A stretch of 42,503 nucleotides of DNA from Nitrospinae bacterium RIFCSPLOWO2_12_39_16 (GTDB lineage Bacteria > Nitrospinota > Nitrospinia > UBA9942), in the NCBI GenBank assembly GCA_001805005.1, contig MHDO01000149.1, forward strand, positions 1-42,503. Direction: 5' to 3'. The notes beneath the pieces are model-generated. The model did not search any database, was not told where the DNA came from, and saw only the letters and a program-made list of their open reading frames with translations. Made by a program: the position numbers and the translations under genes. Of the stretch, positions 1-21,015 are shown one piece after another. How positions within the stretch are numbered: the first letter of the stretch is position 1; the number at the start of each line of letters is the position of its first letter.

Positions 1-1560
1 CCTACATCCGATGGTAAAAACATACTTTATATTTCTACGGCAGGTGGTGATCACAGCGTCTGGATTATGGATATGAATGGCGAAAATGAGAGAAGATTGA
101 CATCAGGAGGGACAGGAGATTGGTTCCCTGCGATGAATCCTGACGGCAAGGAGATTGTATTTGTAAGCACAAGACTTGGCAATGGTGATATATGGACGAT
201 AGATTCAGCAGAAAAGAGATACCACAGATTGACCTATACTGATCTGCCAGAGTTTTCCCCTGCATGGAGTCCTGATGGCTCAAGGGTTGCCTATGTAACC
301 AATCAGGGTGGAGAATTTGATGTCTGGATTATGGATAGGGATGGGAAAAATAAGAGGCGTTTGACAAAAGGGTTATCAGATAAAAATTGGGGGAACAGAT
401 TCTCGGCAATTAAGATAATGGAAACTGCAGGCTATTATCATCTCTCATGGCATCCTGATGGGACAAAGCTCCTTTTTACTGAATGGGAGACTGACACTAA
501 CACTAATCAGGAAAAGACATATATCTCTGTTCTTGAGTTTGATAAAGGAATATTGGATAAAATAGAGGTGGACAGAACACCTATTCCTGAATGGACATTA
601 ATAGGAGAAAAGGAATTAACTGTAGGTGAATGGGAGGATTTTGGGCCAGCCTTTAGTCCAGATGGCGGTTCCATTGCCTTTTCATCCAACAGGAGCGGTA
701 GCTGGGATATATGGAGTATGGAATTCAATGGAGAAAACTTAAGGCAACTTACAAAAGGGGATGATGATGAGTTGGCTCCAGTATATAGTCCCGATGGTAA
801 GGAAATAGCATTTTTGAGAAGCCAGAAGCCAGAAGCCAGAAGCCAGAAGGATGAAACAAATTTTGAAAATCTTCAATCGTCAATCGTCAATCGTCAATAT
901 TCATTGTGGATAATGAAAAGTGGCGGGAGTGGTGCTAGGCAGATTACAAAAGGTATTCCTATTATATCCTATCCTGCGTGGCATCCAAATGGTAGAAAGA
1001 TTGCCTTTGTTGTTAGAGAGGAAGATGGGACTAATATATGGAGTTATGATCTTGAAAATTCTAAAATGCAAAGGCTTATTGTTGCCATGCAGAGCGTAGT
1101 AACAAGTAAAGGCGAGCAACTTCCTTATTCCCCCTTAACAAAGAAGGGAGACGGAGGGTTATCTCTCTATCGCATTGGGTATAATCCTGCTGGTGATAAA
1201 ATCACCTTTGAATCTAATAGCTCTGGAAATATAGAGATATGGACAATGAGAGCTGATGGAACCAATCTTGCCCGTATTACAGAGGGGGATAGTCCTCATT
1301 GGAATCCTATCTGGAGTCCTGATGGGAAGTTCATAGCCTATTCAACCGAAAAGCTGGGAGAGGAGGCAGGACATCATAATTGGCGGAATTATAATATCTG
1401 GGTAGCAAATACAGAGACCCATGAAGAGAGAATAATTACTGGTGAGGAACAGACAGACTGGAATCCTGTGTGGAGTCCTGATGGTAAAAAAATTGCCTAT
1501 GTTACTAACAGGGCGGATGGCTTTAAACATTTCGGTATCTGGATGCTGTATTTGAAATGA
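1..1560 (+). CDS. PD40/TolB-like beta-propeller repeat protein, 5'-truncated by window edge (subfamily A)
   Basis: Frame 1 is open from nt 1 (PTSDGKNILYISTAGG..), so ATG 67 of the ORF track is internal. Repeated blade motifs D[IV]W[IVLM]MDxDGxNxxRLT and [FW]SPDGxxI[AV][FY]. C-terminus EEQTDWNPVWSPDGKKIAYVTNR..IWMLYLK* is shared with the next five genes. Confidence 0.85.
   Translation, partial: PTSDGKNILYISTAGGDHSVWIMDMNGENERRLTSGGTGDWFPAMNPDGKEIVFVSTRLGNGDIWTIDSAEKRYHRLTYTDLPEFSPAWSPDGSRVAYVTNQGGEFDVWIMDRDGKNKRRLTKGLSDKNWGNRFSAIKIMETAGYYHLSWHPDGTKLLFTEWETDTNTNQEKTYISVLEFDKGILDKIEVDRTPIPEWTLIGEKELTVGEWEDFGPAFSPDGGSIAFSSNRSGSWDIWSMEFNGENLRQLTKGDDDELAPVYSPDGKEIAFLRSQKPEARSQKDETNFENLQSSIVNRQYSLWIMKSGGSGARQITKGIPIISYPAWHPNGRKIAFVVREEDGTNIWSYDLENSKMQRLIVAMQSVVTSKGEQLPYSPLTKKGDGGLSLYRIGYNPAGDKITFESNSSGNIEIWTMRADGTNLARITEGDSPHWNPIWSPDGKFIAYSTEKLGEEAGHHNWRNYNIWVANTETHEERIITGEEQTDWNPVWSPDGKKIAYVTNRADGFKHFGIWMLYLK
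821..898 (+). repeat. in-frame heptamer STR pair in PD40 gene 1: (GCCAGAA)x4 821-848, (TCAATCG)x3.7 873-898
   Basis: Read directly. Translates SQKPEARSQKDETNFENLQSSIVNRQ. Confidence 0.9.
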
Positions 1561-1575
1561 AGGAGGATGATTAAA

Positions 1576-3702
1576 ATGAATAAAAAGCTAATATTAACCG
1601 CAGAGACACAGAGGCGCAGAGGAATATTTTTTGTTTTTAAGCCCATTAATGTTTTTCTCCGTGTCTCCGTGCCTCTGTGTTTTTTTCTTACATCTTGCTT
1701 CTTGTTGCCAACACTGTCATATGCACAGGAGCTTCCATATTCTGTCAGGAATATTACTGATGGAGGGCAGGTAGATTTTCATCCTGATTTTAGACCCGAT
1801 GGTAAGGAGCTCGTATTTGCATCCAGGAGTGAAATATCTAAAGACAATAAAGAGTTCTGGAATATCAGCCCCTATCATGTAAATTTATGGCTAATAGATT
1901 CTAATGGTAATAACAGGCGACCACTAACCTCTGGTAAAGTAATAGATTGTTATCCTTCCTTTACCCCTGATGGCGAGAAGATATTGTTTGTCTCAAACAG
2001 GGGAGGGCAGTGGGATATATGGTCTATAAAAACGGATGGCTCAAGCCTTACCCGTCTTACAGATAATCAGGATAAAGATTATTCTCCAAGGGCAACACAG
2101 GATGGAAAACATATTTTATTTTTCAGCACACCAACACATAGTGAAGCAGGTTATATTACAGAGAGTGTCTGGATTATGGATATGGATGGAAAAAATGCAA
2201 GGAGATTGACCTCCGGAGGCAAGGGTGATTGGTATCCATCTATGCATCCTGATGGAACAGAGATTATATTTGCGAGTATGAGACTTATCGGCGGGAGTCT
2301 CTGGACAATAGATATGGAGGGCAGAGATTACAAAAGGTTGACCTATGGGAAGGTATTGGAATTTTTCCCCAACTGGAGTCCTGACGGAACAAAAATCGCT
2401 TATATTTCAAGGAGGGAGCATGCATCCTTTGATACTGTAGGTGATACAAAAAATGACCCTCTTGAGATATGGGTTATGGATAGAGATGGGAGCAATAAAA
2501 GACAGTTAACAAAAAATATATCAGGAGGAATCTGGGATTCAAGATTTAACTTGAGAAAGCCATTAGACTTCATCAGTTATTATCATCTCTCATGGCACCC
2601 TGATGGCACAAAGCTCGCACTGACCACTTGGGAGAAGGAACAAAAGGGGAGTTACATAAGTATAATTGAATTTGATAAAGATACCCTAAATAGACTGCCT
2701 GTCTTGAATGAAGGGCCAGTTCTTCAATACACCCTGCTCGGAGAGAGGGAGCTTACTAAGGGGGAATGGGAGGATTTTGGTCCATCCTTCGGCCCTGATG
2801 GCAATGCGATAGTCTTTTCATCAAACAGAACAGGTAATTGGGATATCTGGAGTATAGGAGCGGATGGTGAAGGATTAAAACAAATAACAAATGAAACTGA
2901 TGATGATATTGCCCCTGTCTTCAGTCCTGATGGAAAGGAGATAGCATTTTTGAGGAGCCAGAAGCCAGAAGCCAGAAGCCAGAAGGATGAAACTGATTTT
3001 AAAAATCTTCAATCTTCAATCTTAAATCTTCAATATGATTTGTGGGTAATGAAGAGTGATGGGAGTGGTATGAGGAAGATTACAAAAAATATTCCTATTT
3101 TATCCTATCCTATATGGCACTCTGACGGTAAAGAGATTGCATTTGTATCAAAAGGAGATGAGGGGATTGGAATATGGAGATATGATGTTAATCGTCATAG
3201 TAGTAAGAAGGTCGCTATTATCTGGAATAGTGAACAAGAAACAGGAAGCAAGAAGCAAGAAGCAGGAAAAGGAAAATATTATCCATTTAATGAACTATTT
3301 CTTTACCGGATTGATTATAACAGGAAGGGTGATAAGCTCACATTTGAATCAAATCTATCAGGTAATGTGGAAATATGGGTAATGCATAGCGATGGAAGCA
3401 ATATGAGTAAGATTACAAGAGGCAATGAACCGCACTGGAATCCCGTTTTTAGTCCGGATGGAAAAATGATAGCTTATGCAACGGAGAAATTTGCCTCAAA
3501 TTTAGGACCTCCTTTCTGGCCTGCCTCTAATTATAATATCTGGCTGACAGATATAAATACAGGAAAAGAAGAAGCACTTACGGCTGAAGAGCAGACAGAT
3601 TGGAATCCTGCATGGAGTCCGGATGGAAAAAAAATCGCCTATGTCACTAACAGGTCAGGCGATTTTAAGCATAATAGTATATGGCTGTTGTATTTGAAAT
3701 AA
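1576..3702 (+). CDS. exported PD40/TolB-like double beta-propeller protein (subfamily A)
   Basis: AGGAGG 1561-1566 lies 9 nt before ATG 1576; ORF-track ATG 1567 abuts the SD and is less likely. Leader MNKKLILTAETQRRRG..VPLCFFLTSCFLLPTLSYA/QE has a charged then hydrophobic segment and an AxA-like site. PD40 blade motifs run throughout. Confidence 0.85.
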   Translation: MNKKLILTAETQRRRGIFFVFKPINVFLRVSVPLCFFLTSCFLLPTLSYAQELPYSVRNITDGGQVDFHPDFRPDGKELVFASRSEISKDNKEFWNISPYHVNLWLIDSNGNNRRPLTSGKVIDCYPSFTPDGEKILFVSNRGGQWDIWSIKTDGSSLTRLTDNQDKDYSPRATQDGKHILFFSTPTHSEAGYITESVWIMDMDGKNARRLTSGGKGDWYPSMHPDGTEIIFASMRLIGGSLWTIDMEGRDYKRLTYGKVLEFFPNWSPDGTKIAYISRREHASFDTVGDTKNDPLEIWVMDRDGSNKRQLTKNISGGIWDSRFNLRKPLDFISYYHLSWHPDGTKLALTTWEKEQKGSYISIIEFDKDTLNRLPVLNEGPVLQYTLLGERELTKGEWEDFGPSFGPDGNAIVFSSNRTGNWDIWSIGADGEGLKQITNETDDDIAPVFSPDGKEIAFLRSQKPEARSQKDETDFKNLQSSILNLQYDLWVMKSDGSGMRKITKNIPILSYPIWHSDGKEIAFVSKGDEGIGIWRYDVNRHSSKKVAIIWNSEQETGSKKQEAGKGKYYPFNELFLYRIDYNRKGDKLTFESNLSGNVEIWVMHSDGSNMSKITRGNEPHWNPVFSPDGKMIAYATEKFASNLGPPFWPASNYNIWLTDINTGKEEALTAEEQTDWNPAWSPDGKKIAYVTNRSGDFKHNSIWLLYLK
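1598..1707. repeat. family-2 leader palindrome (octamer arms) in PD40 gene 2
   Basis: Left arm CCGCAGAGACACAGAGGCGCAGAGG 1598-1622. Right arm TCTCCGTG TCTCCGTG CCTCTGTG 1656-1679 (the complementary octamer family). Then CTTGCTT CTTGTTG 1694-1707. Confidence 0.85.
2957..3034 (+). repeat. in-frame heptamer STR pair in PD40 gene 2: (GCCAGAA)x4 2957-2984, (AATCTTM)x4 3004-3034
   Basis: Read directly. Translates SQKPEARSQKDETDFKNLQSSILNLQ. Homologous position to 821-898. Confidence 0.9.
3234..3275 (+). repeat. in-frame heptamer STR (RCARGAA)x6 in PD40 gene 2
   Basis: ACAAGAA ACAGGAA GCAAGAA GCAAGAA GCAGGAA AAGGAAA. Translates EQETGSKKQEAGKGK. Confidence 0.85.
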
Positions 3703-3715
3703 GGGGGGATTTACC

Positions 3716-5965
3716 ATGAATAGAAAAATCAGAAGACAGAAGATAGAAGTCAGAAGTCAGACCTCTTGCCTCCGCAGGCTAAAGCCTACGGCTACTCATT
3801 GCTCATTGCTCATTGCTCATTGCTTCTTGTTACTCACACTGACACTGACACTTGCACTTAGCGATGTCTTTGCAGCATCAGAGGGAAGGCCTAATCACAT
3901 GTCGGAAGAGATATTGAAAACAAAGAAGGTTGTCGCAGTTCCCGAAGATGTTCAAGTTCCTTACACTGTCAGGAGGGTTACTGATGGCAGTTCTATTGAT
4001 TACCATCCTGAATTCAGCCCTGATGGAAAACAGATTGTGTTTATATCAAAAATAGATAATGTTGAGGCTAAGAAAAAAGGAGAGTTCTGGCACAAGACAC
4101 CTTATTATTTGAATCTATGGCTCATGGATTCGGATGGCAGGAATAAACGGCAATTAACATCCGGAGAATTTCAGGATTTTGCCCCAAAATGGACAGCAGA
4201 CGGGGAAAAGATATTTTTTGTCTCAAATCGCAGAAACGGCAGGTGGGATATATGGTCTGTAGATATAAATGGCTCAAACCTTGCCAGGATTACAGAGACT
4301 GAAGGAAATACAGGTTTATGGGAAAGGTCTCACTATCCTTTCCCTACACCTGATGGCAAAGGGATGGTTTTTATAATCTATAAAAAATCACATGGAAGTG
4401 TATGGTATAAGGATATGGAAAGCGGAAATATAAGGAGAATAACATCAGGAGGTTTTGGAGATGACTTTCCTATGGTTTCCCCTGATGGTAAAGAGATTGT
4501 CTTTAAAAGCACGAGACAGGGCAATGGAGATATATGGTCAATAGACAGCTCGGGGAAAAATTATAGGAGATTGACTTATGAGGATTATCCTGAGTTTTAT
4601 CCTGCATGGAGTCCGGATGGAACAAAGGTTTCTTATATTACAAACAAGGGAGGCGTCTTTGATGTGTGGCTCATGGATAGGGACGGCAGGCATAAAAAGA
4701 AATTGACAAAATATCTGTCAAAGGGGGCATGGGGATTAAGGTTTGATTATAATGACCTCACTGAGGCGGGATATTACCATGTTTCATGGCATCCTGATGG
4801 AACAAAGCTTGCTTTAACTACATGGGAGCCTGATAAAAAAGAGAGTTATTTGACAATGCTTGACTTTGGAAAGGATATTAATAAGGCGGCTGAGGAATTG
4901 CCCGAAGAAAAAGAAACCCTTCCTGAATATACTCTCATTGGAGAGAAAGAACTTACAGGCGGCGGAAATTATGATGATTTTGGTCCATCCTTCAGCCCTG
5001 ATGGTAAAACAATAATCTTTGCTTCCAATAGGAAGGGGAACTGGGATATCTTGAGCATAGGTGTTGATGGTGAAGGATTGCGGCAGATAACAAAAGATGC
5101 AGGTGATGAAGTTGCTCCAGTATATAGCCCTGATGGGAAGGAGATAGCATATCTTAAAGAAGCAAATCCTAAATCCGAAATCCTAAATCCTAAATATGAT
5201 ATCTGGGTAATGAATAGTAACGGGAGCGAGGCAAGGAAGGTTACGAATGGTATTGAGGTGATTTCCTATCCAGCATGGCATTCTGATGGTAAAGAGATTG
5301 CCTTTGTGGTAAAGGGAGATAGCGGACCAGAGATACGATTGCTTTCCCTTGACAAAAGGGGACAATCTCCTCAGGCGGTTGTTTCTATATGGGATACTGA
5401 AAAACCCAATCCTGTGATGTTTCCATTTACAAAGGAGGGAGAGAAAGAGGAATTTACCCCTCAGGAGATAGCAAAGATGAAGGAATTATTCCCGAATATA
5501 AAATTAGGGATGGGTGGATTAACTCCATTTACAAAGGGTGAAACGATTGATGTCCCTTATCCACTGAATGAATTTCTTTATAGAGTTGATTATAGTGCTA
5601 CAGGCGACAGAATTATATTTGAGTCTAATAAGACCGGTAATATTGATATATGGTCGGTAAGGAGGGATGGGACAGAATTGAACCGTATTACTAAAAAGGA
5701 TGGTCCTCATTTGAATCCTGTTTTCAGCCCTGATAATAAAAAGATTGCATATGCCCGCAGAAAATTAGATTTAAGCTCCTATAATGAAGTGAATTATAAT
5801 ATATGGATTGCTGATGCTGAAACAGGTGAAGAGATGCCGATTAATGGAGAGGAGCAGACAGACTGGAATCCTGCTTTCAGTCCTGATGGCAAAAAAATTG
5901 CCTATGTCACCAATCGCTCAGGGGAGTTTAAGCATTATAATATATGGATGCTGTATTTGAAATGA
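3716..5965 (+). CDS. exported PD40/TolB-like double beta-propeller protein (subfamily B)
   Basis: G-run 3703-3708 lies 7 nt before ATG 3716. Leader MNRKIRRQKIEVRSQ..HCSLLIAHCFLLLTLTLTLALSDVFA/AS. Subfamily-B signatures GEFWHKTPYYLNLWLMDSDG and LWERSHYPFPTPDGKGM. Same C-terminal ..NIWMLYLK*. Confidence 0.85.
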   Translation: MNRKIRRQKIEVRSQTSCLRRLKPTATHCSLLIAHCFLLLTLTLTLALSDVFAASEGRPNHMSEEILKTKKVVAVPEDVQVPYTVRRVTDGSSIDYHPEFSPDGKQIVFISKIDNVEAKKKGEFWHKTPYYLNLWLMDSDGRNKRQLTSGEFQDFAPKWTADGEKIFFVSNRRNGRWDIWSVDINGSNLARITETEGNTGLWERSHYPFPTPDGKGMVFIIYKKSHGSVWYKDMESGNIRRITSGGFGDDFPMVSPDGKEIVFKSTRQGNGDIWSIDSSGKNYRRLTYEDYPEFYPAWSPDGTKVSYITNKGGVFDVWLMDRDGRHKKKLTKYLSKGAWGLRFDYNDLTEAGYYHVSWHPDGTKLALTTWEPDKKESYLTMLDFGKDINKAAEELPEEKETLPEYTLIGEKELTGGGNYDDFGPSFSPDGKTIIFASNRKGNWDILSIGVDGEGLRQITKDAGDEVAPVYSPDGKEIAYLKEANPKSEILNPKYDIWVMNSNGSEARKVTNGIEVISYPAWHSDGKEIAFVVKGDSGPEIRLLSLDKRGQSPQAVVSIWDTEKPNPVMFPFTKEGEKEEFTPQEIAKMKELFPNIKLGMGGLTPFTKGETIDVPYPLNEFLYRVDYSATGDRIIFESNKTGNIDIWSVRRDGTELNRITKKDGPHLNPVFSPDNKKIAYARRKLDLSSYNEVNYNIWIADAETGEEMPINGEEQTDWNPAFSPDGKKIAYVTNRSGEFKHYNIWMLYLK
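3730..3860. repeat. family-1 leader cassette, copy in PD40 gene 3
   Basis: Purine arm CAGAAGA CAGAAGA TAGAAGT CAGAAGT 3730-3757. Core hairpin CCGCAGGC-TAAA-GCCTACGG 3772-3791. (CTCATTG)x4 3795-3822. CACTGA-type hexamers to 3860. Confidence 0.9.
5164..5195 (+). repeat. in-frame heptamer STR (AAATCCK)x4.5 in PD40 gene 3
   Basis: AAATCCT AAATCCG AAATCCT AAATCCT AAATA. Translates NPKSEILNPK. Same loop as 821-898. Confidence 0.9.
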
Positions 5966-5980
5966 GGGAGGTTGATTAAA

Positions 5981-8143
5981 ATGAACAAAAACCTAATATT
6001 AACCACAGAGACACAGAGGCGCAGAGGAAAAAACAACTTAAAGAAATCTCTGTGTCTCAGTGCCTCTGTGGCTTTTTCTTGCATCTTGCTTCTTGCATCT
6101 TGCTTCCTGTCACCGACACTGGCACTTGCACTGGAAGAGGAACTTCCATACTCCATCACAGATATTACATCTGGAGAGGCAGTAGATTTTTACCCTGAGT
6201 TCAGCCGTGATGGAAAACAGATTGTTTTCTCCTCTAAGCCATTGGACGGTAGTTATTTCACTGATATGCATCTGTGGATTATGGATGCCGATGGAAATAA
6301 CAGACGGCAGATAACAGATAAGAGTGCGATGTATCTTCAGCCTACCTTTACACCTGATGGAGAAAAGGTTGTTTTTATCTCCAATTTGGAAGATGGACTA
6401 TGGGATATATGGTCAATGAAAATTAACGGTTCAGGGCTTACCCGACTGACAAAGGACAACCAGAAAGAGTTTTTTCCGATTGTTACCTCTGATGGTAAAA
6501 ATGTGATTTTCATAGGAAGATATTTTGGAACGGATAGTGTATTTATTATGGATACTGATGGCAAAAATCTGAAAAGATTGACTTCCGGTGGAAATGGAGA
6601 TTCCTTTCCTGCGGTTTGTCAGGATGGAAAGGATATTATTTTTTCCACAACGAGGCTTGGTAATAGCAATCTCTGGACAATAGACAGAGAAGGGAAGATA
6701 TATAATCGTCTTACCTTTGAAGATACAATAGAGTTTTCACCATCCTGCAGCCCTGATGGAAAAAGGATTGCCTATGTTGCCATAGAGGGAGGGGCTAAGA
6801 CTTATAGCAAGGCACGGAAGGGATTTGAGTTTAAAGAGATATCCTATAGGGAAAGGTCATTTGATATGTGGTTGATGAACAAGGATGGAAGCGGCAGGAG
6901 GCAGATTGCAAGAAATATATTTGAGACGGGACCGAGTATGAGGTTGTTCAAGTCCGTAGATGTTATAGAAGGGATTAACTACTATCACATCTCATGGCAT
7001 CCTGATGGTAAAAAGATGATATTGAGCAGATGGAATAAGGACAAAGCGGGGAGTCGTATCAGTATCTTGTCATTAGATAATGAAGTTGTTGAAAAATTAC
7101 CAATCACCGAAACACCGCTTTCTGAGTATTCTCTTCTCAGTGAAAAAGACCTTACCGGTGGGGATTGGGATGACATCACCCCAAGTTTTGCCCCGGATGG
7201 CAAGGGTATAATATTTGCCTCTAACAGAAATGGCGGGTGGGATATATGGAGGCTTTGGATTGCGGATTGCGGATTGCGGATTGCGGATTGCAAATCAGAG
7301 TTTGATGATGCAAAGCTGGAACAGCTAACAAAAGGGGATGATGATGAGTTGGCTCCAGTATATAGTCCTGATGGCAAAAAGATAGCTTATTTACGAAATA
7401 CGAAAGACGAAATACTAAATACGAAATATGATATATGGTTAATGAAAACTGACGGGAGTAGTGCGAGGCAGGTTACAAATGGGATTTCTGTTCTTTCCTA
7501 CCCTGCATGGAAACCTGATGGGAAAGAGATTGTCTTTGTGTCTGAAGGTAATGAACAAGCCCCTGAAATATGGGGATATAATATCGCTGAGGGGAGTCTT
7601 AAAAATATTGCATCCATTAAGGACGCTTTACTTCTTGGCTCCAGATTAAATAAGAAAACTAATATTGAACTTATCAGTGACAGGCGAAATATAAATACTT
7701 CTAATCCGCTATCAATAGGTGCAGGTGGTATCTATCCATTTAATAAATTTCTTTATCGTATAAATTATAGTCCTCGCGGCGACAGAATTATATTTGAACT
7801 GGATATGAAAGATAGCATAGGTATATGGACTATTAATAGTGATGGTAATGGTCTTACTCCTGTTATGACAGAGGATTCTCTCTACTGGACGCCGGTCTTC
7901 AGCCCGGATGGCAGAAAAATAGCCTATTCAAAAAAGGCAGGTAAACAGTTTGCCCCGATATATTGGACGGATTACAACATCTGGATAGCGGATGTTGATA
8001 GCGGTGAGAAGATGATGATTAATGGGGAAGAGCAGATAGACTGGTTTCCATCATGGAGCCCTGATGGAAAGAAAATAGCTTATGTTACTAATCGTTCGGG
8101 AGATTTCAGCCGCTTTAATATATGGCTGTTGTATTTGAAATAA
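5981..8143 (+). CDS. exported PD40/TolB-like double beta-propeller protein (subfamily A)
   Basis: GGGAGG 5966-5971 lies 9 nt before ATG 5981; the ORF-track start 5972 is TTG. Leader MNKNLILTTETQRRRG..ASCFLSPTLALA/LEEE. PD40 blade motifs. Ends ..FNIWLLYLK*. Confidence 0.85.
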   Translation: MNKNLILTTETQRRRGKNNLKKSLCLSASVAFSCILLLASCFLSPTLALALEEELPYSITDITSGEAVDFYPEFSRDGKQIVFSSKPLDGSYFTDMHLWIMDADGNNRRQITDKSAMYLQPTFTPDGEKVVFISNLEDGLWDIWSMKINGSGLTRLTKDNQKEFFPIVTSDGKNVIFIGRYFGTDSVFIMDTDGKNLKRLTSGGNGDSFPAVCQDGKDIIFSTTRLGNSNLWTIDREGKIYNRLTFEDTIEFSPSCSPDGKRIAYVAIEGGAKTYSKARKGFEFKEISYRERSFDMWLMNKDGSGRRQIARNIFETGPSMRLFKSVDVIEGINYYHISWHPDGKKMILSRWNKDKAGSRISILSLDNEVVEKLPITETPLSEYSLLSEKDLTGGDWDDITPSFAPDGKGIIFASNRNGGWDIWRLWIADCGLRIADCKSEFDDAKLEQLTKGDDDELAPVYSPDGKKIAYLRNTKDEILNTKYDIWLMKTDGSSARQVTNGISVLSYPAWKPDGKEIVFVSEGNEQAPEIWGYNIAEGSLKNIASIKDALLLGSRLNKKTNIELISDRRNINTSNPLSIGAGGIYPFNKFLYRINYSPRGDRIIFELDMKDSIGIWTINSDGNGLTPVMTEDSLYWTPVFSPDGRKIAYSKKAGKQFAPIYWTDYNIWIADVDSGEKMMINGEEQIDWFPSWSPDGKKIAYVTNRSGDFSRFNIWLLYLK
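6003..6112. repeat. family-2 leader palindrome (octamer arms) + heptamers in PD40 gene 4
   Basis: CACAGAGA CACAGAGG CGCAGAGG 6004-6027. TCTCTGTG TCTCAGTG CCTCTGTG 6047-6070. CTTGCAT CTTGCTT CTTGCAT CTTGCTT CCTGTCA 6078-6112. Confidence 0.9.
7257..7291 (+). repeat. perfect (GGATTGC)x5 inside PD40 gene 4
   Basis: Five identical heptamers. Translates (R)LWIADCGLRIADC(K). Confidence 0.95.
7393..7427 (+). repeat. in-frame heptamer STR (ACKAAAK)x5 in PD40 gene 4
   Basis: ACGAAAT ACGAAAG ACGAAAT ACTAAAT ACGAAAT. Translates NTKDEILNTK. Same loop as 821-898. Confidence 0.9.
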
Positions 8144-8245: not shown

Positions 8246-10438
8246 ATGTATATTAAAAAACTGACACAGTCACTAACACTCACACTGTCATTATCACTAT
8301 TATTAATTCTTGCCGGTGAGGTCTTTGCGGACACGCAAAGTATTTCAGATATCCCTTATAATGTCATTAGAATTACTGATGGGAGTTCCAAAGATTATCA
8401 GCCTGAGTTCAGTCCTGATGGGAAGCAGATTGTATTTATTAAAGAAATAAGTAATAGTGAAGGCATAAAAAGTGGTGAATTCTGGCACAAGACACCATAT
8501 TACATGAACCTATGGCTCATGGATTCGGATGGTAAGAATAGGAGACAATTAACATCAGGAGAGGTGCAGGATTTTGCTCCAATGTTTACAACGGATGGGA
8601 AAAGTATCATTTTTGTATCAAATCGTAAACATGGTAATAGATGGGATATATGGTCAATTAATGTAGATGGCTCAAACCTTACCAGAATAACAGAAATAGA
8701 AAAGAATGAGCTATGGGAGAGAATATTTTATCCTTCACCTACACCTGATGGTAAAGGGATGCTTTTCGTAGTTTATCAAGAAGGTCACCCAAGTGTATGG
8801 TTAATGGACATGGAAAGTAGGGCTGTGAAAAGAATAACATCAGGAGGAACTGGAGACGATACTCCTGTGATGTCCCCTGATGGTAAAGATATCGTCTTTA
8901 AAACTTACAGACTCGGAGCTGGTGGTATATGGTCAATAGATAGGTCAGGAAAAAATTACAAGAGATTGACATACAAGTATTATAGGGAGTTTTACCCTGC
9001 ATGGAGTCCGAATGGAACAAAGATATCTTATGTTACTTATGAAAATGGCATTTTTGACCTATGGATAATGGATAGGGATGGCAGAAATAAAAAGAGGCTG
9101 ATAAAATCTATTCCACTGAAACCAAGTGATTTCTGGAGTGAGCATCCTATCGAATCTGGATATTATCGTGTCTCATGGCACCCTTATGGTACAAAGCTTG
9201 CCTTAACCCTTTGGGACCAAGATAAAAAAGAAAGCTATTTAACATTGTTTGATTTTGAAAAAGATATTACCATGGTATCGGAAAGCTTGTCTGATGAAAC
9301 CGAGTCGCTTAAAGATTATACGCTGATTGGTGAAAAAGATATCTCCGGCGATGGGAATTGGGATGATTTTGGTCCGTCTTTTAGTCCTGATGGAAAAACA
9401 ATACTATTTGCTTCTAATAGAAAAGGAAACTGGGGCATATGGAGTTTGGGAGCCGATGGCGAAGGATTAAAACAAATAACAAAAGGGAGCGGTGATGACA
9501 TTGCCCCTGTTTTTAGTCCTGATGGCAAAGAGATAGCTTTTTTGAAGAAGACAGAAGATAAGAAGTTAAGAAGTTTAGAAGATGAGAAACTGAAAAGCAC
9601 AACCTCTCAACCTCTCAACCTCTCAACTTCTGTTATTTCTACCTATGACCTCTGGATAATGAATAGTGATGGGAGTGTGGCGAGACAGGTTACTAAAGGT
9701 ATTTCAATTATATCCTATCCTGCATGGAATCCGAATGGGAAAGAGATTGCCTTTATTACAAAAGGTGATAAAGGTCATGAAATACAATTTATATCCCTTA
9801 ATAAAGATAGTGTGGGAGGTGTTTCTCAAGCTTACACTGTGAACCGACTTATCTCTATATGGGATATTGAAAATGATAATTCTGCAATCTCTCTATTCGA
9901 AAAAAACGAAGATTTTACTTCTAATAAAAAGTATAAAATAGCAAAGATGCAACATTTTTTACCAGAAGTGAAAAACCCTGCATTTATTTTATCAAGATTT
10001 ATAAAAGGAGAGGCGGTTACTTTATCCTATCCATTAAAAGAATTTCTTTATAAAGCCAGTTATAATACCTCCGGTGATAAGATTATATTTGAGTCCAATC
10101 GGACAGGGAACATAGATATATGGTCGGTAAAAAGGGATGGGACAGAACTGACACGAATTACGAAAGGGAATGGACCTCATTTGAATCCAGTTTTTAGCCC
10201 AGATAATAAAAAAATTGCCTTTGCCCATCGTAAAGAAATAGGGGTAAGCATTAGCAATACAACAAACTATAATATATGGATTGCCGATGTTCAAACAGAT
10301 GAGGAGATGATGATTAACGGTGAGGAGCAGACAGACTGGAATCCTGTATTTAGTCCTGATGGAAAAAAAATTGCCTATGTTACCAATCGTTCAGGAGATT
10401 TTAAGCACTATAACATATGGATGCTGTATTTGAAATAA
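8246..10438 (+). CDS. exported PD40/TolB-like double beta-propeller protein (subfamily B)
   Basis: AGGGGAG 8231-8237 upstream of ATG 8246. Classical signal peptide MYIKKLTQSLTLTLSLSLLLILAGEVFA/DT. GEFWHKTPYYMNLWLMDSDG signature. Ends ..NIWMLYLK*. Confidence 0.9.
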   Translation: MYIKKLTQSLTLTLSLSLLLILAGEVFADTQSISDIPYNVIRITDGSSKDYQPEFSPDGKQIVFIKEISNSEGIKSGEFWHKTPYYMNLWLMDSDGKNRRQLTSGEVQDFAPMFTTDGKSIIFVSNRKHGNRWDIWSINVDGSNLTRITEIEKNELWERIFYPSPTPDGKGMLFVVYQEGHPSVWLMDMESRAVKRITSGGTGDDTPVMSPDGKDIVFKTYRLGAGGIWSIDRSGKNYKRLTYKYYREFYPAWSPNGTKISYVTYENGIFDLWIMDRDGRNKKRLIKSIPLKPSDFWSEHPIESGYYRVSWHPYGTKLALTLWDQDKKESYLTLFDFEKDITMVSESLSDETESLKDYTLIGEKDISGDGNWDDFGPSFSPDGKTILFASNRKGNWGIWSLGADGEGLKQITKGSGDDIAPVFSPDGKEIAFLKKTEDKKLRSLEDEKLKSTTSQPLNLSTSVISTYDLWIMNSDGSVARQVTKGISIISYPAWNPNGKEIAFITKGDKGHEIQFISLNKDSVGGVSQAYTVNRLISIWDIENDNSAISLFEKNEDFTSNKKYKIAKMQHFLPEVKNPAFILSRFIKGEAVTLSYPLKEFLYKASYNTSGDKIIFESNRTGNIDIWSVKRDGTELTRITKGNGPHLNPVFSPDNKKIAFAHRKEIGVSISNTTNYNIWIADVQTDEEMMINGEEQTDWNPVFSPDGKKIAYVTNRSGDFKHYNIWMLYLK
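9546..9626 (+). repeat. in-frame STR pair in PD40 gene 5: AGAAG at period 7-8 x6 (9546-9592), (CCTCTCAA)x3 (9603-9626)
   Basis: Read directly. Translates ..KKTEDKKLRSLEDEKLKSTTSQPLNLST.. Same loop as 821-898. Confidence 0.85.
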
Positions 10439-10453
10439 ATGGGAGGTTTTACC

Positions 10454-12673
10454 ATGAACATAAAAATCAGAAGACAGAAGACAGAAGACAGAAAACAGAC
10501 CTCTTGCCTCCACAGGCTAAAGCCTGCGACTACTCATTGCTCATTGCTTTTTGCTTTTTGCTTTTTGCTCTTGCTTCTTGTCGGTAAGGTCTTTGCGGAC
10601 ACACAAAGTATTTCAGATATCTCTTATAATGTCATTAGAATTACAGACGGGAGTTCCATGGATTATAATCCTGAATTCAGCCCTGATGGAAAACAGATTG
10701 TGTTTATATCAAAAATAGATAATACTGAGGCTAAGAAAAAAGGAGAGTTTTGGCACAAGACACCATTTTATCTGAATCTATGGCTCATGGATTCGGATGG
10801 TAAGAACAGGAGACAATTAACATCAGGAGAGGTGCAGGATTTTGCTCCAAGGTTTACCCCTGACGGGAAAAAGGTTTTTTTTGTATCCAATCGAATGAAT
10901 AATAAAAGGGATGTATGGTCAATAGATATTGATGGCTCAAACCTTAAAAGGATTGCAGAGATAGAGGGGGATACAGAACATTGGAGGACAGTACAATATC
11001 CAGTTCCTACACCTGATGGTAAGGGATTGGTTTTAATACTCTATAAAAAAGAGTCTGTAAGTGGTGTATGGTTTATGGATATAGAAAGTGGAAAGACAAG
11101 GAGAATAACTTCAGGGGGAAATGGAGACTATTTTCCGGTAATGTCTCCTGATGGTAAAGAGATTGTTTTTGAAAGCATGAGACTGGGCAATTTGGGTAGT
11201 AGCGGAGATATTTGGTTAGTGGATACATCAGGAAAAAATTACAAGCGATTAACCTATGAGAATTATCCTGAGCTTTATCCTGCATGGAGTCCAGATGGAA
11301 CTAAGATATCATATGTTGCCAACAAAGAGGGTATCATTGATATATGGATAATGGATAGAGATGGAAAACACAGAAAGAGAGTAACAAAAAACATCTTAAA
11401 AGAGGTATGGGGGCGAAAGTGGCTGTCCATGTTTAATTATAACGACTTGTTTGATGCAGGATATTATCATGTATCATGGCATCCCGATGGAACAAAGCTT
11501 GCTTTAACTACATGGGAGCCTGATAAAAAAGAGAGCTATTTGACAATACTTGATTTTAAGGAAGATATTAGTAAAGTAATAGATAATTTACCTGAAGAAA
11601 AAAAGAACCTGTCTGATTATACTCTGATTGGGGAGAAAGACCTTACAGGTGGTGGAGACTGGGATGATTTTGGCCCATCTTTTAGCCCTGATGGAAAGAC
11701 AATAATCTTTGCTTCCAATAGAAAGGGGAACTGGAATATCTGGAGTATAGGAATTGATGGTGTAGGATTAAAACAGCTTACAAACGGGGATGATGATGAG
11801 TTAGCTCCAGTATATAGTCCTGATGGAAAAGAAATAGCCTTCCTTAAAAGCTCAAAGGAATTACTTTCAGCTTATGATATATGGGTAATGAAAAGTGATG
11901 GAAGTGGTGCGAGGCAGGTTACAGAGGGTTTTAAAGTTATATCCTACCCTGCTTGGAACCCGCAAAGTAACGAGATTGCCTTTGTATCAAAAGAGGATAA
12001 AGGTCCTGAGATACAATTAATCTCTCTTAGTAAGGTTGGTCAAGAGGTTGTTAATACTGTTAGTCGGGTTATTTCTATGTGGGATACTCAAAAGCCCAAT
12101 CCAGTTATGTTCCCATTTGCAAAAGAAGAGGAACAGAGAGAGTTCAATCCTCATAAAATAATGAAGATGAAAAAAATGGTTCAAGAGGAAAATAAAAATG
12201 AGAGAAAAGTTTGGAGCGAGGAATTGTTACTCTTAAAAAAAATCTTTGAGATTCCTTATCCATTGGAAGAGTTTCTTTATAAGATTGATTATAATACCAC
12301 AGGGGATAGACTTATATTTGAATCTAATCAAACAGGAAATATAAATATATGGTCGGTAAAAAGGGACGGAACAGGGCTGACCCATCTTACGAAAGGAGAT
12401 GGCACCTATCTAAATCCAGTTTTTAGCCCTAATAATTCAAAAGTTGCATATACCCGTAAGCTTAATAGAAGGTCAGAGTTTGATTACAACACCAGTGAAA
12501 GTTATGACATCTGGATTGCCGATGTTGATACTGGCGAGGAGATGAGGATTAACGATGAGGAGCAGACAGACTGGAATCCTGTCTTTAGTCCTGATGGAAA
12601 AAAAATTGCCTATGTTACTAATCGTTCAGGAGATTTTGAGCATTATAATATATGGCTGCTGTATTTAAAATGA
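10454..12673 (+). CDS. exported PD40/TolB-like double beta-propeller protein (subfamily B)
   Basis: GGGAGG 10441-10446 lies 7 nt before ATG 10454; ORF-track ATG 10439 directly abuts the upstream stop. Leader MNIKIRRQKTEDRKQ..LLLLLVGKVFA/DT. PD40 motifs. Ends ..NIWLLYLK*. Confidence 0.85.
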   Translation: MNIKIRRQKTEDRKQTSCLHRLKPATTHCSLLFAFCFLLLLLVGKVFADTQSISDISYNVIRITDGSSMDYNPEFSPDGKQIVFISKIDNTEAKKKGEFWHKTPFYLNLWLMDSDGKNRRQLTSGEVQDFAPRFTPDGKKVFFVSNRMNNKRDVWSIDIDGSNLKRIAEIEGDTEHWRTVQYPVPTPDGKGLVLILYKKESVSGVWFMDIESGKTRRITSGGNGDYFPVMSPDGKEIVFESMRLGNLGSSGDIWLVDTSGKNYKRLTYENYPELYPAWSPDGTKISYVANKEGIIDIWIMDRDGKHRKRVTKNILKEVWGRKWLSMFNYNDLFDAGYYHVSWHPDGTKLALTTWEPDKKESYLTILDFKEDISKVIDNLPEEKKNLSDYTLIGEKDLTGGGDWDDFGPSFSPDGKTIIFASNRKGNWNIWSIGIDGVGLKQLTNGDDDELAPVYSPDGKEIAFLKSSKELLSAYDIWVMKSDGSGARQVTEGFKVISYPAWNPQSNEIAFVSKEDKGPEIQLISLSKVGQEVVNTVSRVISMWDTQKPNPVMFPFAKEEEQREFNPHKIMKMKKMVQEENKNERKVWSEELLLLKKIFEIPYPLEEFLYKIDYNTTGDRLIFESNQTGNINIWSVKRDGTGLTHLTKGDGTYLNPVFSPNNSKVAYTRKLNRRSEFDYNTSESYDIWIADVDTGEEMRINDEEQTDWNPVFSPDGKKIAYVTNRSGDFEHYNIWLLYLK
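10468..10580. repeat. family-1 leader cassette, copy in PD40 gene 6
   Basis: (CAGAAGA)x3 CAGAAAA 10468-10495. Hairpin CAGGC-TAAA-GCCTG 10513-10526. (CTCATTG)x2 (CTTTTTG)x3 then CTCTTG CTTCTTG 10533-10580. Confidence 0.9.
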
Positions 12674-18075: not shown

Positions 18076-21015
18076 ATGCAAGTTTTTCGGAAGTTTTATA
18101 AAATACTGCTACTGTTATTCGTTCCCACACTCTGCGTGGGAATGTTTATTATCTTAAACCCTGTCTACGCCTCTGAAATGCCTGCCCATGAACGATTTAA
18201 TCAGGGAGTTGATGCTGAATTAACCCATGAAACAAGTTCAGGGCAAGGTTCAGCACAAGTATTTGTTCAGATGGGGCATTCAGAATCGGTTCTTTCTGTA
18301 GCTTTCTCCAATAATGGAAAATATATATTATCAGGAGGCAAGGATAAAATCCTCATACTCTGGGATGCACCCACAGGGAGGGAGATACGAAAATTTGAAG
18401 GGCATACGAGTGATGTTAATTCAGTTGCCTTTAGTTATGACGGGAGGATTCTGGCATCAGGTGGTAGGGATAAAACCATAATTCTGTGGGATATTAATAC
18501 AGGAAATATCATAAAAACATTTATAGGTCATACATCCACTGTCAAATCAGTTGCCATTAGCCCTGATGGAAGGATTCTGGCATCAGGGAGTTGGGATAAA
18601 ACTATAATCCTGTGGGATATTGAAACGGGGAGTGCTATAAAAACACTTAAGGGACATAATGACTATATTGATTCAGTTGCCTTTAGTCCTGATGGAAGGA
18701 CTCTTGCATCGGGGAGTCAGGATAAAACCATAAAACTATGGGAAATATCTACAGGAAGGGAGATGCGGAAATTTGAAGGGCATACCGGTCATGTCAAATC
18801 AGTTTCCTTTAGTCCTGATGGAAAAATTATCGCATCAGGTATTGATAAAGATATAACCCTGTGGAATATAGAAACAGGGAGTGCTATAAGGACACTTAAA
18901 GGACATGATGATATGGTATTGTCAGTTGCCTTTAGTCCTGTTGGAAAGGTTCTCTCATCAGGTGGGATTGATAAAAACATAATTCTCTGGGATATTGATA
19001 CAGGCAATGTCATAAAAACATTCAAAGGACAAACTGACTATATCAGTTCAGTTGCTTTAAGTCCTGATGGAAGAACTCTATGCTCAGGGAGTTTTGATAA
19101 CACCGTACTCCTCTGGGATATAGAAACAGGGAGTGATATAAGGACACTTAAAGGGCATAATTTTTATGCCAAATCAGTTGCCTTCAGTCCAGATGGAAGG
19201 ATTCTGGCGTCAGAGAGTTATGACACCGTACTCCTCTGGGATATAGAAACAGGGAGTGCTATAAAGACACTTAAAGGACATAATGAGTGGGTATCTGCAG
19301 TTGCCTTCAGCCCTGATGGAAAAGTTTTTGCATCGGGTGGCTGGGATAAAACTATAATTCTCTGGGATGTTGCAGCAGGTAGTGCTATAAGAACATTCAG
19401 AGGGCATACTTCATGGGTCAAATCAGTTGCCTTTAGTCCTGATGGAAAGATGCTGGTATCTGTGGGACAGGATGACGCTATAATCCTCTGGGATGTGGCA
19501 GCAGGCAGTGCTATAAAAACGCTGAAAGGACATTGGGTCAAATCAGTTGCCTTTAGTCCTGATGGAAAGAGTATAGCATCAGGTGGTGATTACAATATAA
19601 CCCTTTTGGATGTTGCAACAGGAAATGTAATAAAGACTTTCACCGGCCATACCGATTGGGTTGTACCAGTCACCTTCAGCCATGATGGAAGGCTTTTAGC
19701 ATCAGGGAGTGTTGATAAAGCTGTAATACTCTGGGATGTTGAGAAAGGTAATGCCATAAAAACACTAAGAGGACACAGTAATAATGTCGTCTCAGTTGCC
19801 TTCAGCCATGATGGAAGGCTTTTAGCATCAGGGAGTGTTGATAAAACTGTAATACTCTGGGATGTTGAGAAAGGTAATGCCATAAAAACACTAAGAGGAC
19901 ATAATGATATACTTTTATCAGTTGCCTTTAGTCCTGCTAAAAGGATTCTCGTATCAGGGAGTGGCGATGGAACGAGCAGATGCTGGGATATAAATACAGG
20001 GAGGGAGATTGCCCAGTTTATAGGTTTTAGTAATGGAGAGTGGATTGTGATTACCCCTGAAGGCTATTACAATTCCTCTGCAAATGGTGATAAACTTTTG
20101 AATGTAAGGGTCGGCAATAATGTTTATGGAATGGATCGGTATCGCTCATCATTTTATAACCCCAGGATTGTGGAGAATGCATTAAAACTTGAGGATTCAC
20201 AGAAAGCCATCTTAGAGGTTATTGGAGGGCAAAAGGGGATATTGCCTACCATTTCTACAATCCCTGTAACAGAGAGGGGAAGAAAGGAATGTATACCTAT
20301 TGATGCAGAGGAAATGCAGAGACGATACGAGAATAAGCCACTTCTCTTTGATAATATGTTTATATTTGATATTCGTCCTCTTAAAATGGCTGTGAAAGGA
20401 AAATCCATCCCATTTGTAAAGCAAACCAATTGGGATATGTTCAGGGTAAAATATATTTATAATGTAGAAATGTGGAAGGGTAAAGATGTTTATCTGATTG
20501 GTGAAGACTCAGAATCAACGAAGAGTTTTTGCGAAGAGATGCTCAAAAAAGATTATAGTGTGAATGATATTTATTATTTAAAAGGTGGAATAGATGCCTG
20601 GAATGGACCTGTCAGGATGCCTTTTAAAGATGTCCAGTGTGAAGGTCTTGATGGGGATGAAATAAAAAAAATGATGGAGGGAGGACAGAAGGTTTATATA
20701 ATAGACTGGCGTCATCCAAACGATTTTTATAATGGCGGGCATATCCCTGACTCAATAAATGGATATGGGAAAGAAGGTATTTTTGGAGGGATTGAAGACA
20801 TGCTTAGGGGATACTTTAGATTCAGACCAATTTATATAGATGTAATCAGAGATAATGCCATAGCAGTGTTTATAGATGATACAGAGTGGAAAGGATTGCA
20901 TCGCTGTAAGATTGAGAAGAGGGCAAGTGGTGTAATGGATAAGATGTATTATTTAAAAGGTGGTATTGAAAACTGGAAAGGGTCTCTGGAGAAAGAATCA
21001 TGGCAGCAAAAATAA
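18076..21015 (+). CDS. exported 14-repeat WD40 protein fused to a beta-rich linker and C-terminal tandem Cys-less rhodanese-like domains
   Basis: 14 units of [KR]GHxxxVxSVAFSPDG[RK]xLASGSxDKT[IV]xLWD (two 7-blade propellers). Then GEWIVITPEGYYNSSANGDKLLNVRVG..FYNPRIV. From ~20281, RKECIPIDAEEMQRRY.. is paralogous to 14769-15677 and 16324-17121. N-terminus MQVFRKFYKILLLLFVPTLCVGMFIILNPVYA/SE. Confidence 0.85.
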   Translation: MQVFRKFYKILLLLFVPTLCVGMFIILNPVYASEMPAHERFNQGVDAELTHETSSGQGSAQVFVQMGHSESVLSVAFSNNGKYILSGGKDKILILWDAPTGREIRKFEGHTSDVNSVAFSYDGRILASGGRDKTIILWDINTGNIIKTFIGHTSTVKSVAISPDGRILASGSWDKTIILWDIETGSAIKTLKGHNDYIDSVAFSPDGRTLASGSQDKTIKLWEISTGREMRKFEGHTGHVKSVSFSPDGKIIASGIDKDITLWNIETGSAIRTLKGHDDMVLSVAFSPVGKVLSSGGIDKNIILWDIDTGNVIKTFKGQTDYISSVALSPDGRTLCSGSFDNTVLLWDIETGSDIRTLKGHNFYAKSVAFSPDGRILASESYDTVLLWDIETGSAIKTLKGHNEWVSAVAFSPDGKVFASGGWDKTIILWDVAAGSAIRTFRGHTSWVKSVAFSPDGKMLVSVGQDDAIILWDVAAGSAIKTLKGHWVKSVAFSPDGKSIASGGDYNITLLDVATGNVIKTFTGHTDWVVPVTFSHDGRLLASGSVDKAVILWDVEKGNAIKTLRGHSNNVVSVAFSHDGRLLASGSVDKTVILWDVEKGNAIKTLRGHNDILLSVAFSPAKRILVSGSGDGTSRCWDINTGREIAQFIGFSNGEWIVITPEGYYNSSANGDKLLNVRVGNNVYGMDRYRSSFYNPRIVENALKLEDSQKAILEVIGGQKGILPTISTIPVTERGRKECIPIDAEEMQRRYENKPLLFDNMFIFDIRPLKMAVKGKSIPFVKQTNWDMFRVKYIYNVEMWKGKDVYLIGEDSESTKSFCEEMLKKDYSVNDIYYLKGGIDAWNGPVRMPFKDVQCEGLDGDEIKKMMEGGQKVYIIDWRHPNDFYNGGHIPDSINGYGKEGIFGGIEDMLRGYFRFRPIYIDVIRDNAIAVFIDDTEWKGLHRCKIEKRASGVMDKMYYLKGGIENWKGSLEKESWQQK
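18122..18142. repeat. 7-bp-stem hairpin TTCCCAC-ACTCTGC-GTGGGAA inside signal-peptide coding region
   Basis: Perfect inverted repeat. Encodes (F)VPTLCVGM. Confidence 0.6.
19675..19926 (+). repeat. 126-bp tandem duplication = two near-identical WD40 blades (repeats 12 and 13)
   Basis: 19675-19775 against 19801-19901: 101 nt with a single mismatch (ATAAAGCTG/ATAAAACTG). Both encode FSHDGRLLASGSVDK[AT]VILWDVEKGNAIKTLRGH. Confidence 0.95.

Follow-up and report, generated by a model that had tools for sequence, protein, structure and literature searches.

Rickettsia palindromic elements (RPEs) are small dispersed palindromes that lie in frame in unrelated open reading frames (ORFs), are translated and appear to be compatible with the protein fold; they are about 150 bp long, with a conserved sequence for each family (PMC10969869). 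Heptanucleotide simple sequence repeats (SSRs) are over-represented in bacteria, with convergent GGGAATC pairs in Xanthomonas (Rehm et al. 2015, PMC4692102) and TAACTGA repeats in Beggiatoaceae (PMC4679880). In E. coli K1, a heptanucleotide variable-number tandem repeat in NeuO ranges from 3 to 53 copies and switches the gene on or off (PMC13001214), and TprK of Treponema pallidum combines a single expression site with 53 silent donor cassettes under host immune pressure (PMC10063172). These systems are compared here with a locus in contig MHDO01000149.1 of Nitrospinae bacterium RIFCSPLOWO2_12_39_16. The stretch analyzed, hereafter the window, comprises positions 1 to 42,503 of this contig, and its first 12.7 kb consist of six co-directional ORFs, all PD40 (PF07676) paralogues, that carry short translated repeat cassettes at the same loop.

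These paralogues appear to share a permissive loop that holds translated cassettes from a genome-wide pool. Whole cassettes would be replaced at a time, for the most part through short-tract conversion between the tandem copies, and would be filtered only for frame, absence of stop codons and hydrophilicity, a reading to which we assign a probability of roughly 0.55. The host is an uncultured groundwater Nitrospinota bacterium, represented by a metagenome-assembled genome (MAG) of 1.88 Mb that is 73% complete.

The locus resembles RPEs in that dispersed palindromic repeats are translated in frame within unrelated ORFs, here one cassette type (D) in an FGE-sulfatase gene and a GC-rich module in a gene on contig C136. 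However, the modules described here are 30-110 nt long, consist of 7-9-base tandem units and belong to many unit families (137 in the genome); one site is re-occupied by different modules exchanged among tandem paralogues, and cassette A is neither palindromic nor dispersed. Features shared with the heptamer SSRs (PMC4692102, PMC4679880) are the dominance of period 7, low copy numbers, some inverted pairs and variation between close relatives. Those repeats are mainly intergenic, with one or few units per genome, whereas the present ones are translated, use many units and are replaced as cassettes. Like NeuO, the locus contains a coding heptamer array read as a 7-residue periodic peptide, with the frame kept by changes in threes. 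In contrast to NeuO, copy number is stable, variation arises by cassette replacement, and no frameshifted allele occurs among the 72 loop sequences compared. The unit-number polymorphism and frameshifted alleles typical of SSR contingency loci were not seen, as the contigs of four sequencing runs contain no loop indel and the genes are open.

As in TprK, variable regions within conserved sequence appear to be rewritten by short non-reciprocal transfers from related copies, and the variable tract is bounded by conserved sequence with full paralogues as related donors. The present locus differs in that the donors are apparently full-length genes, the host is a free-living groundwater bacterium and non-coding modules turn over too; no partial silent copies that could form a donor archive were found in the window genome. 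PARCELs, too, are coding repeats that have dyad symmetry, undergo shuffling within genomes and are linked to membrane-targeted proteins, but they are 25-residue protein domains in long tandem tracts, as opposed to 7-base DNA units in the loop of a folded domain. The proteins also share their PD40 repeats with TolB/PD40 propellers, and their loop region can be aligned with E. coli TolB (chain 2w8b_B), although they score below the TolB cut-off, are ~720-750 residues long and occur as 4-6 tandem copies. A search of the literature outside subscription journals found no description of tandem paralogues that exchange repeat cassettes at a single loop, or of in-place replacement of repeat-hairpin modules between near-identical genomes.

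The tandem PD40 genes and their loop cassettes

The genes fall into four orthogroups (I-IV), defined by a tree with the loop masked and by the conserved gene order II-III-IV-I:

1..1560, + strand, gene 1, orthogroup II by tree and synteny, cut at the 5' end of the window
1567..3702, + strand, gene 2, PD40 paralogue, orthogroup III
3716..5965, + strand, gene 3, PD40 paralogue, orthogroup IV
5972..8143, + strand, gene 4, PD40 paralogue, orthogroup I
8246..10438, + strand, gene 5, PD40 paralogue, extra copy of orthogroup IV
10439..12673, + strand, gene 6, PD40 paralogue, extra copy of orthogroup IV

Protein alignment gives 48-58% identity to gene 1 among the tandem paralogues, and these six are the only close paralogues of the set in the window genome. 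Matches to the PF07676 profile reach 214.5 and 189.2 bits (cut-off 20.9; E 6e-65 and 5e-57) over 6-7 stretches, which places the proteins in the PD40 family. Scores against the TolB equivalog TIGR02800 are 260.1 and 269.9 bits, below its cut-off of 343.15, so that they fall outside TolB itself. The paralogues carry N-terminal leaders, and proteins of this length with many PD40 repeats probably form two propellers.

The loop is what we take, from the PD40 motif and general propeller topology, to be the turn between the second and third strands of a blade, on an axial face. The aligned turn of E. coli TolB (2w8b_B) is 3 residues shorter than the loop of gene 6. In 16 of 17 loop peptides the Kyte-Doolittle mean lies between -1.0 and -2.4, compared with -0.4 to -0.7 for whole proteins, and 25-50% of the residues are charged. 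Because the peptides are hydrophilic, lengths of 5 to 36 residues are tolerated and the TolB turn aligns here, the loop is likely to be solvent-exposed and probably floppy. The cassettes within it, with arrays located by Tandem Repeats Finder, are as follows:

817..898, + strand, cassette A of gene 1: arm 1 (AGAAGCC)x4.7 at 817-849, spacer DETNFEN, arm 2 (AATCGTC)x4.4 at 868-898
2953..3034, + strand, cassette A of gene 2: arrays at 2956-2985 and 3004-3034, the latter AATCTTC x4.4
5156..5195, + strand, cassette B of gene 3: (AAATCCK)x4.6; Tandem Repeats Finder array at 5164-5195, AAATCCT x4.6
7392..7428, + strand, cassette C of gene 4: (TACGAAA)x5.3
9545..9643, + strand, cassette D of gene 5: arm 1 (AAGAAGWT)x5.6 at 9545-9588, arm 2 (CAACCTCT)x4 at 9600-9631
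11846..11872, + strand, minimal cassette H of gene 6: KSSKELLSA, a 9+9-base hairpin with one mismatch and no array

The six genes therefore display five cassette types. A preliminary description of this DNA had listed arrays in genes 1-5, placed them at a common insertion site and assigned one insert family to genes 1 and 2 and other families to the remaining genes. Tandem Repeats Finder recovered every listed array, protein alignment puts all inserts between SPDGKxIA[FY]L and Y[DS][IL]W, and the division into families was borne out. The same description had gene 6 free of any insert, which proved mistaken: its 9-residue loop is the one-unit form of cassette H. This cassette is expanded in relatives (for example KLKAQSS..LSAFSFQ), and the expanded peptides would back-translate to heptamer arrays.

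Cassette A of gene 1 translates as RSQKPEARSQKDETNFENLQSSIVNRQ. Cassette B has GAA in place of TAA at the sole unit where TAA would be in frame. Arm 2 of cassette D is partly complementary to arm 1, and only 1 of its 6 reading frames is open. The final unit of several arrays fuses with the conserved flank ..AATATGAT. The types differ in predicted DNA folding, with z values of -4.58 for E (a type found in relatives), -1.66 for H, 0.1 to -1.3 for D and +1.0 to +1.4 for A. A reading of the inserts as RNA structures was dropped, as genes 1-4 gave no significant signal (z +0.7 to +1.2) and gene 5 gave z -1.63.

Probable exchange of cassettes at the loop

The same tandem array occurs in three genomes of the same genus (G001-G003) and in one of another genus of the family (G006), and 5 of the 9 genomes compared at order level carry the PD40 family. 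A protein search returned 61 family members, of which five equal ORFs of the locus and one, P0061, was dropped for its misaligned loop; two G001 fragments lack the loop. The loop data set has 72 rows, comprising 17 genes with DNA (6 from the window and 11 from relatives) and 55 sequences available as proteins only. A scan of metagenome contigs yielded only relatives of at most 34% identity and added no loops. Across the 72 rows the loop takes at least ten cassette types:

Type A, 22 rows: AGAAGNC arm, unique spacer, TCAATCK arm
Type D, 19 rows: period-8 arms
Type H, 9 rows: KSSKELLSA of gene 6 and expanded forms
Type E, 6 rows: period-9 inverted arms
Type B, 5 rows: AAATCCK
Type F, 3 rows: A with an internal deletion
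Type I, 3 rows: seen at protein level only
Types C, G and J, 1 row each: singletons
Other, 1 row: P0017
Outgroup, 1 row: 5-residue loop LRDET

Type A is found in all four orthogroups and both genera, while D, E and B each occur in two orthogroups, and the architecture of A and D is unchanged across genera. Among the genomes with the tandem array, the types are distributed over the orthogroups as follows:

Window genome: II A, III A, IV B, I C, gene 5 D, gene 6 H
G003: II A, III B, IV E, I F
G002: II G, III E, IV A, I A'
G006: II A, III D, IV F, with no group I copy on the contig compared

Cassette type and gene tree are nearly uncoupled. On the loop-masked tree, the type changes 35 times, against 43.4 +/- 1.9 for shuffled labels (minimum 37 in 2000 shuffles). 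Pairs of the same type make up 11/11 of those at patristic distances below 0.02, 3/8 at 0.02-0.05 and 4/13 at 0.05-0.1, and the background of ~18% is reached by a distance of ~0.2. The single C-bearing gene has no second occurrence of its cassette in its own genome, and its nearest relatives (patristic distance 0.03-0.04) carry A-type loops. With so many types, and loops that differ completely between close orthologues, the earlier proposal of a hypervariable loop on a conserved propeller stands. All cassette lengths are multiples of 3, and each of the 17 genes with DNA keeps an open frame. The record titled Nitrospirae bacterium RBG_16_43_11 (L040) also contains a group-I-like PD40 gene; its cassette is of type D, and arm 1 matches that of G006 over ~50 nt. 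The presence of this gene in a MAG labelled as another phylum could reflect mis-binning or transfer.

The replacement is apparent between G003 and G002. In their four orthologue pairs most 25-codon windows are 91-100% identical, whereas the loops are wholly different in 4/4. The replaced tract runs from about GATGGnAAnGAG to TGGnTnATGAA and reaches from a few to ~60 nt into conserved codons, with GGT AAA against GGA AAG upstream and YSLW against YDIW downstream. Non-orthologous genes with the same cassette display the reverse pattern, since the 120-nt block at the loop is identical at 102-104 of 120 positions and the flanking blocks at 81-96. For genes 1 and 2, the cassette block matches at 102/120 against 81-88/120 in the flanks and contains the longest identical run of the pair (38 nt). 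The longest run falls in the loop in 5 of the 6 non-orthologous same-cassette pairs; in four of them, 0, 2, 0 and 8 of 5000 permutations reached the run length observed at the loop. In addition, the adjacent paralogues IV and I of G002 have arm 2 and the following 12 bases in common, and cassettes common to both genera are more conserved than their flanks. Identity peaks centered on the loop, together with flanking codons that change along with the cassette, point to short-tract gene conversion among paralogues.

Smaller alterations accompany these replacements. Types F and G exhibit a deletion between the arms, and the A' arm is longer by 21 nt. A small GC-rich palindromic module is inserted into arm 1 of the G002 group IV gene and the G003 group I gene. 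It lies within AGAAGNC arrays and encodes ..PALS.AEGT.. or PAPASSKQGT, at L033:2088-2207 and L031:13688-13753 in PD40 loops and at C136:11856-11943 in another gene of the window genome, in frame and twice.

Loops were also followed in metagenome contigs. The locus was found in twenty runs from 16 studies, all as Logan contigs, and four runs were compared; contig joints with a side below 30 or an interval not known were ignored. These contigs break inside arrays of at least 31 bases, leaving arm 1 of genes 1 and 2 unbridged and rare length variants invisible. No unit-number indel at the loops is listed in the contigs of the four runs, which drop rare variants. The loops of genes 3, 4 and 6 are spanned, with 0-1 differences, by contigs from at least two independent runs. 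In two runs a contig joins sequence upstream of the loop that resembles gene 2 to the gene 5 flank with the D cassette (joint 2882->9492, side 52); these are the only two chimeric joints observed. The protein P0001 matches this joint, being 89% identical to gene 2 yet carrying D.

Other variable sites lie within the same genes. An array (CAAGAAG)x4.9 at 3235-3274 of gene 2 sits in a second variable region, between IAFVSKG..IW and YPF..LYRIDY, whose length and sequence differ between the near-identical orthologues G003_4259 and G002b_1648. Gene 4 has a second insert, (GGATTGC)x5 at 7257-7291, which is read as WIADCGLRIADC and follows the WDIW strand in the preceding blade. Unlike the main loop, this insert is stable, being unchanged in the window, G003, G002 and five protein clusters. 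P0056 carries a different insert at this spot, with an E-like piece in this second loop.

Sources of the cassettes and turnover outside the loop

Heptamer repeats are a general feature of this genome. Over its whole 1.88 Mb, exact self-match runs of at least 18 bases number 98 at lag 7, against 3, 5, 1 and 0 at lags 6, 8, 9 and 10. The genome has 812 tandem-repeat clusters, 316 of period 7 and 66 of period 8. These 382 period-7/8 arrays represent 137 unit families; most (306) consist of 4-5 copies, and their length peaks at 31-33 nt. Adjacent pairs account for 198 of the 537 arrays of period 6-10, and 40 of 85 adjacent pairs with the same period are inverted complements (at least 6 positions reverse complementary), against ~7% of random pairs. 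Of the 71 arrays in the 17 family genes that have DNA, 25 lie in the loop of ~10 residues, 33 in the N-terminal leader region, 3 in one other loop and 10 elsewhere. The clustering of arrays at the loop far exceeds chance, and the suggestion of an insertion-tolerant hotspot was confirmed in that the loop is the main intragenic site of repeats.

The arms of the cassettes recur across the genome as stand-alone arrays of equal length, (AGAAGCC)4.6 for instance at four other loci; on contig C12 no long ORF covers the (AGAAGCC) array, which is thus not in the PD40-like ORF there. Type E copies the core of a dispersed hairpin element that is present ~50 times in one relative (G003) and four or five times in the window genome; across the family, the number of E-type copies ranges from ~5 to ~50. 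Its arm motif has 100 matches in G003, 49 in G002, 36 in G004, 9 in G001 and 5 in G006, and none with a reversed control pattern; G003 and G002 are the two genomes with E in PD40 loops. In 20 copies from G003 the core lies between conserved termini, one present in 17/20, the other in 13/20 and both in 11/20, whereas the E copy in the PD40 loop lacks them. The junctions at the loop showed neither terminal inverted repeats nor target-site duplications. Orthologous flanks of the G003 E elements L151 and L153 were not found in G002.

A complete D cassette (..EDEKLGRLEDEKNILTSQPLNLSTS..) lies in frame in the FGE-sulfatase (PF03781) gene at L148:70-1149 on the - strand (G002:C92), in a loop between YPWGN and SPYGIHDMGG of the protein, and D-like hairpins also occur between genes. 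The spacer of A has 3 matches, all in PD40 genes. Its DETN and the following SLW resemble the outgroup loop RDETNSLW, and from this single outgroup A may weakly be regarded as the oldest form, arisen around the ancestral loop.

Equivalent turnover is evident outside the PD40 loop. Of 5 comparable intergenic sites in G003 and G002, 4 differ in their entire hairpin module. At L149, L156 and L158 of G003 and their counterparts L181, L184 and L185 of G002, the flanks are near-identical and the module is of another unit family; at L149 the element is also seemingly flipped. Three genomes have three different cores at L161, between flanks that are ~79% identical, and at L154 G003 equals G002, the same termini enclose a different core in the window genome, and the site is empty in G001. 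In each of the two orthologue pairs examined (L031 in G003:C69, L033 in G002:C20), the leader arrays have been swapped, with ~99% identity on both sides. Module replacement is genome-wide judging from these comparisons, and the PD40 loop appears to be its coding-region instance.

Two further repeat regions lie in the window. Positions 21016-21103 hold intergenic inverted heptamer arrays (CAGAAGC/CTCTGTY) that form a predicted long hairpin (RNA z -3.84, with 0/200 shuffles as good); in the G001 counterpart the first arm is one unit longer and the second arm is replaced. Positions 18413-19959 form a long WD40-type repeat region with 126-nt and 375-nt periods detected by Tandem Repeats Finder.

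Proposed mechanism, alternatives and implications

In the proposed mechanism, the turn between the SPDGKxIAFL strand and the YD[IL]W strand of one blade is filled by a translated repeat cassette of one or two arrays, each with 4-6 copies of a 7-9-base unit and often arranged as an inverted pair. Such cassettes are the same kind of module as those at intergenic sites and in leader-peptide regions throughout the genome. Most replacement would proceed by short-tract gene conversion over roughly 100-200 nt, with the conserved codons on either side providing homology, and some cassettes (E, probably D) are captured cores of dispersed repeat-hairpin elements. Deletions between arms, 21-nt (three-unit) array steps and the insertion of GC-rich palindromic modules into arrays add further changes. 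Selection apparently demands only an in-frame, stop-free and hydrophilic product. Recombination would be the underlying mechanism, possibly stimulated by hairpin or repeat DNA.

Several observations weigh against this reading. Some flank windows in the G003/G002 pairs are less similar, at 75 and 83 upstream in pair III and 50 downstream in pair II, the last of which is the second variable region. The identity run is not significant in one A/A pair (235/5000) and in the B/B pair (1507/5000), and low-complexity repeats can inflate identity. No donor was identified for types C, G, I and J; since C is absent from the rest of the genome, conversion between paralogues cannot account for every case. 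Where intergenic sites are unique, entire modules are exchanged without flank homology to any donor, which implies that a mechanism beyond homologous conversion operates and may also affect the loop. The DNA is derived entirely from metagenome assemblies, with 17 genes at the DNA level.

Such a mechanism might be a dedicated, hairpin- or repeat-directed process that cuts out and replaces whole modules in place across the genome, at intergenic sites, in leader-peptide regions and in this coding loop. It would serve as a diversity generator for leader-bearing proteins, with the PD40 paralogues as a shared cassette pool, and translated heptamer arrays in other phyla would be products of the same mechanism; we consider this unlikely. 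Also doubtful is that the cassettes are small mobile repeat-hairpin elements whose excision and insertion favor a target that the PD40 loop happens to contain, so that different family members occupy one site in different strains. This is consistent with E being the core of a multicopy element with conserved termini, with D both lying in frame in an unrelated gene and forming a hairpin between genes, with the replacement of whole modules at unique intergenic sites between near-identical flanks (one site being empty in G001) and with the excess of inverted complements among adjacent arrays. However, the loop copies lack the termini of the element, their junctions share no target motif or target-site duplication, the flanking codons change along with the cassette, and cassette A is not a hairpin (z above 0) and has a spacer confined to PD40 genes. 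Less likely again is that each paralogue was independently seeded with a short tandem repeat (STR) that grew by replication slippage, the explanation put forward in the preliminary description. Slippage has been proposed as the cause of the over-representation of heptamer SSRs in many bacteria (PMC4692102), and some arrays elsewhere in the genome are whole units longer or shorter than in the close relative G001 (+14, +7, -9 and -24 nt). The merging of last units into the conserved flank and the restriction of C to gene 4 would also fit. Local seeding and expansion per gene are nevertheless contradicted for A, D and E: identical bipartite cassettes, unique spacers included, are found in more than one orthogroup and genus, identity is highest at the loop, flanks change with the cassette, and E and D are also present outside PD40 genes. 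The variation does not lie in copy number, with no unit-number variants at loops in the contigs of the four runs, and open-ended slippage would spread array lengths more widely than the narrow peak observed.

Adaptive diversification, in which exchange is selected to vary the exposed face of an exported binding protein, for example with respect to phages or ligand range, seems improbable; it would operate like segmental gene conversion in antigenic-variation systems. Cassettes turn over much faster than the remaining protein, paralogues within a genome mostly differ, the proteins have N-terminal leaders, and cassettes common to both genera are more conserved than their flanks. Yet intergenic modules, where there is no protein, turn over equally, so that a mutational cause is sufficient; moreover, the peptides are of low complexity and the window genome revealed no silent donor archive. 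An assembly artefact, in which conserved flanks led assemblers to pair loops with the wrong paralogue, is very improbable. All sequences come from MAGs or metagenome proteins, the PD40 contigs of G002 are short (3.2 and 10.3 kb) and Logan contigs break at arrays, but exact words common to paralogue flanks are ~14 bases or fewer (judged by eye), too short for an assembly k of 21 or more. The swapped tracts have orthologous sequence on both sides, the independent runs that bridge genes 3, 4 and 6 agree with the assembly, gene-cassette pairings recur in separate protein clusters (P0021, P0039-41), and modules are replaced at unique intergenic sites as well. Least credible of all is a single ancient insertion whose descendants diverged in situ in the separate lineages, with no exchange. 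The spread of type A over all orthogroups and both genera, the likeness of its spacer to the outgroup loop and the appearance of F and G as internally deleted A are in keeping with it, and type A may have originated in this way. Taken alone, this explanation is contradicted by the unrelated loops in all four G003/G002 pairs between mostly near-identical flanks, by D, E and B in non-orthologous genes and by the identity peaks centered on the loop. The preliminary description had regarded inserts that are ancient and invariant as evidence against its proposal; some cassettes do prove ancient, whereas the loop is highly variable.

The locus suggests how selfish-looking repeat DNA may have turned into protein sequence at a defined spot and was then shuffled as cassettes, while the fold around the 5-36-residue loop stayed fixed. 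It joins three topics that are usually kept apart, namely over-represented heptamer repeats, in-frame palindromic elements and gene conversion between paralogues, and it reveals a fast, unexplained replacement process that leaves near-identical genomes with different repeat-hairpin modules. Should nothing more than recombination at fragile DNA be involved, the locus would still be useful for tracking strain-level turnover and would call for caution when metagenomes are assembled and annotated. If replacement is driven by an enzyme, it would represent a new bacterial way to diversify leader-bearing proteins and regulatory regions, and might explain the heptamer arrays in housekeeping-gene loops of several uncultured phyla.

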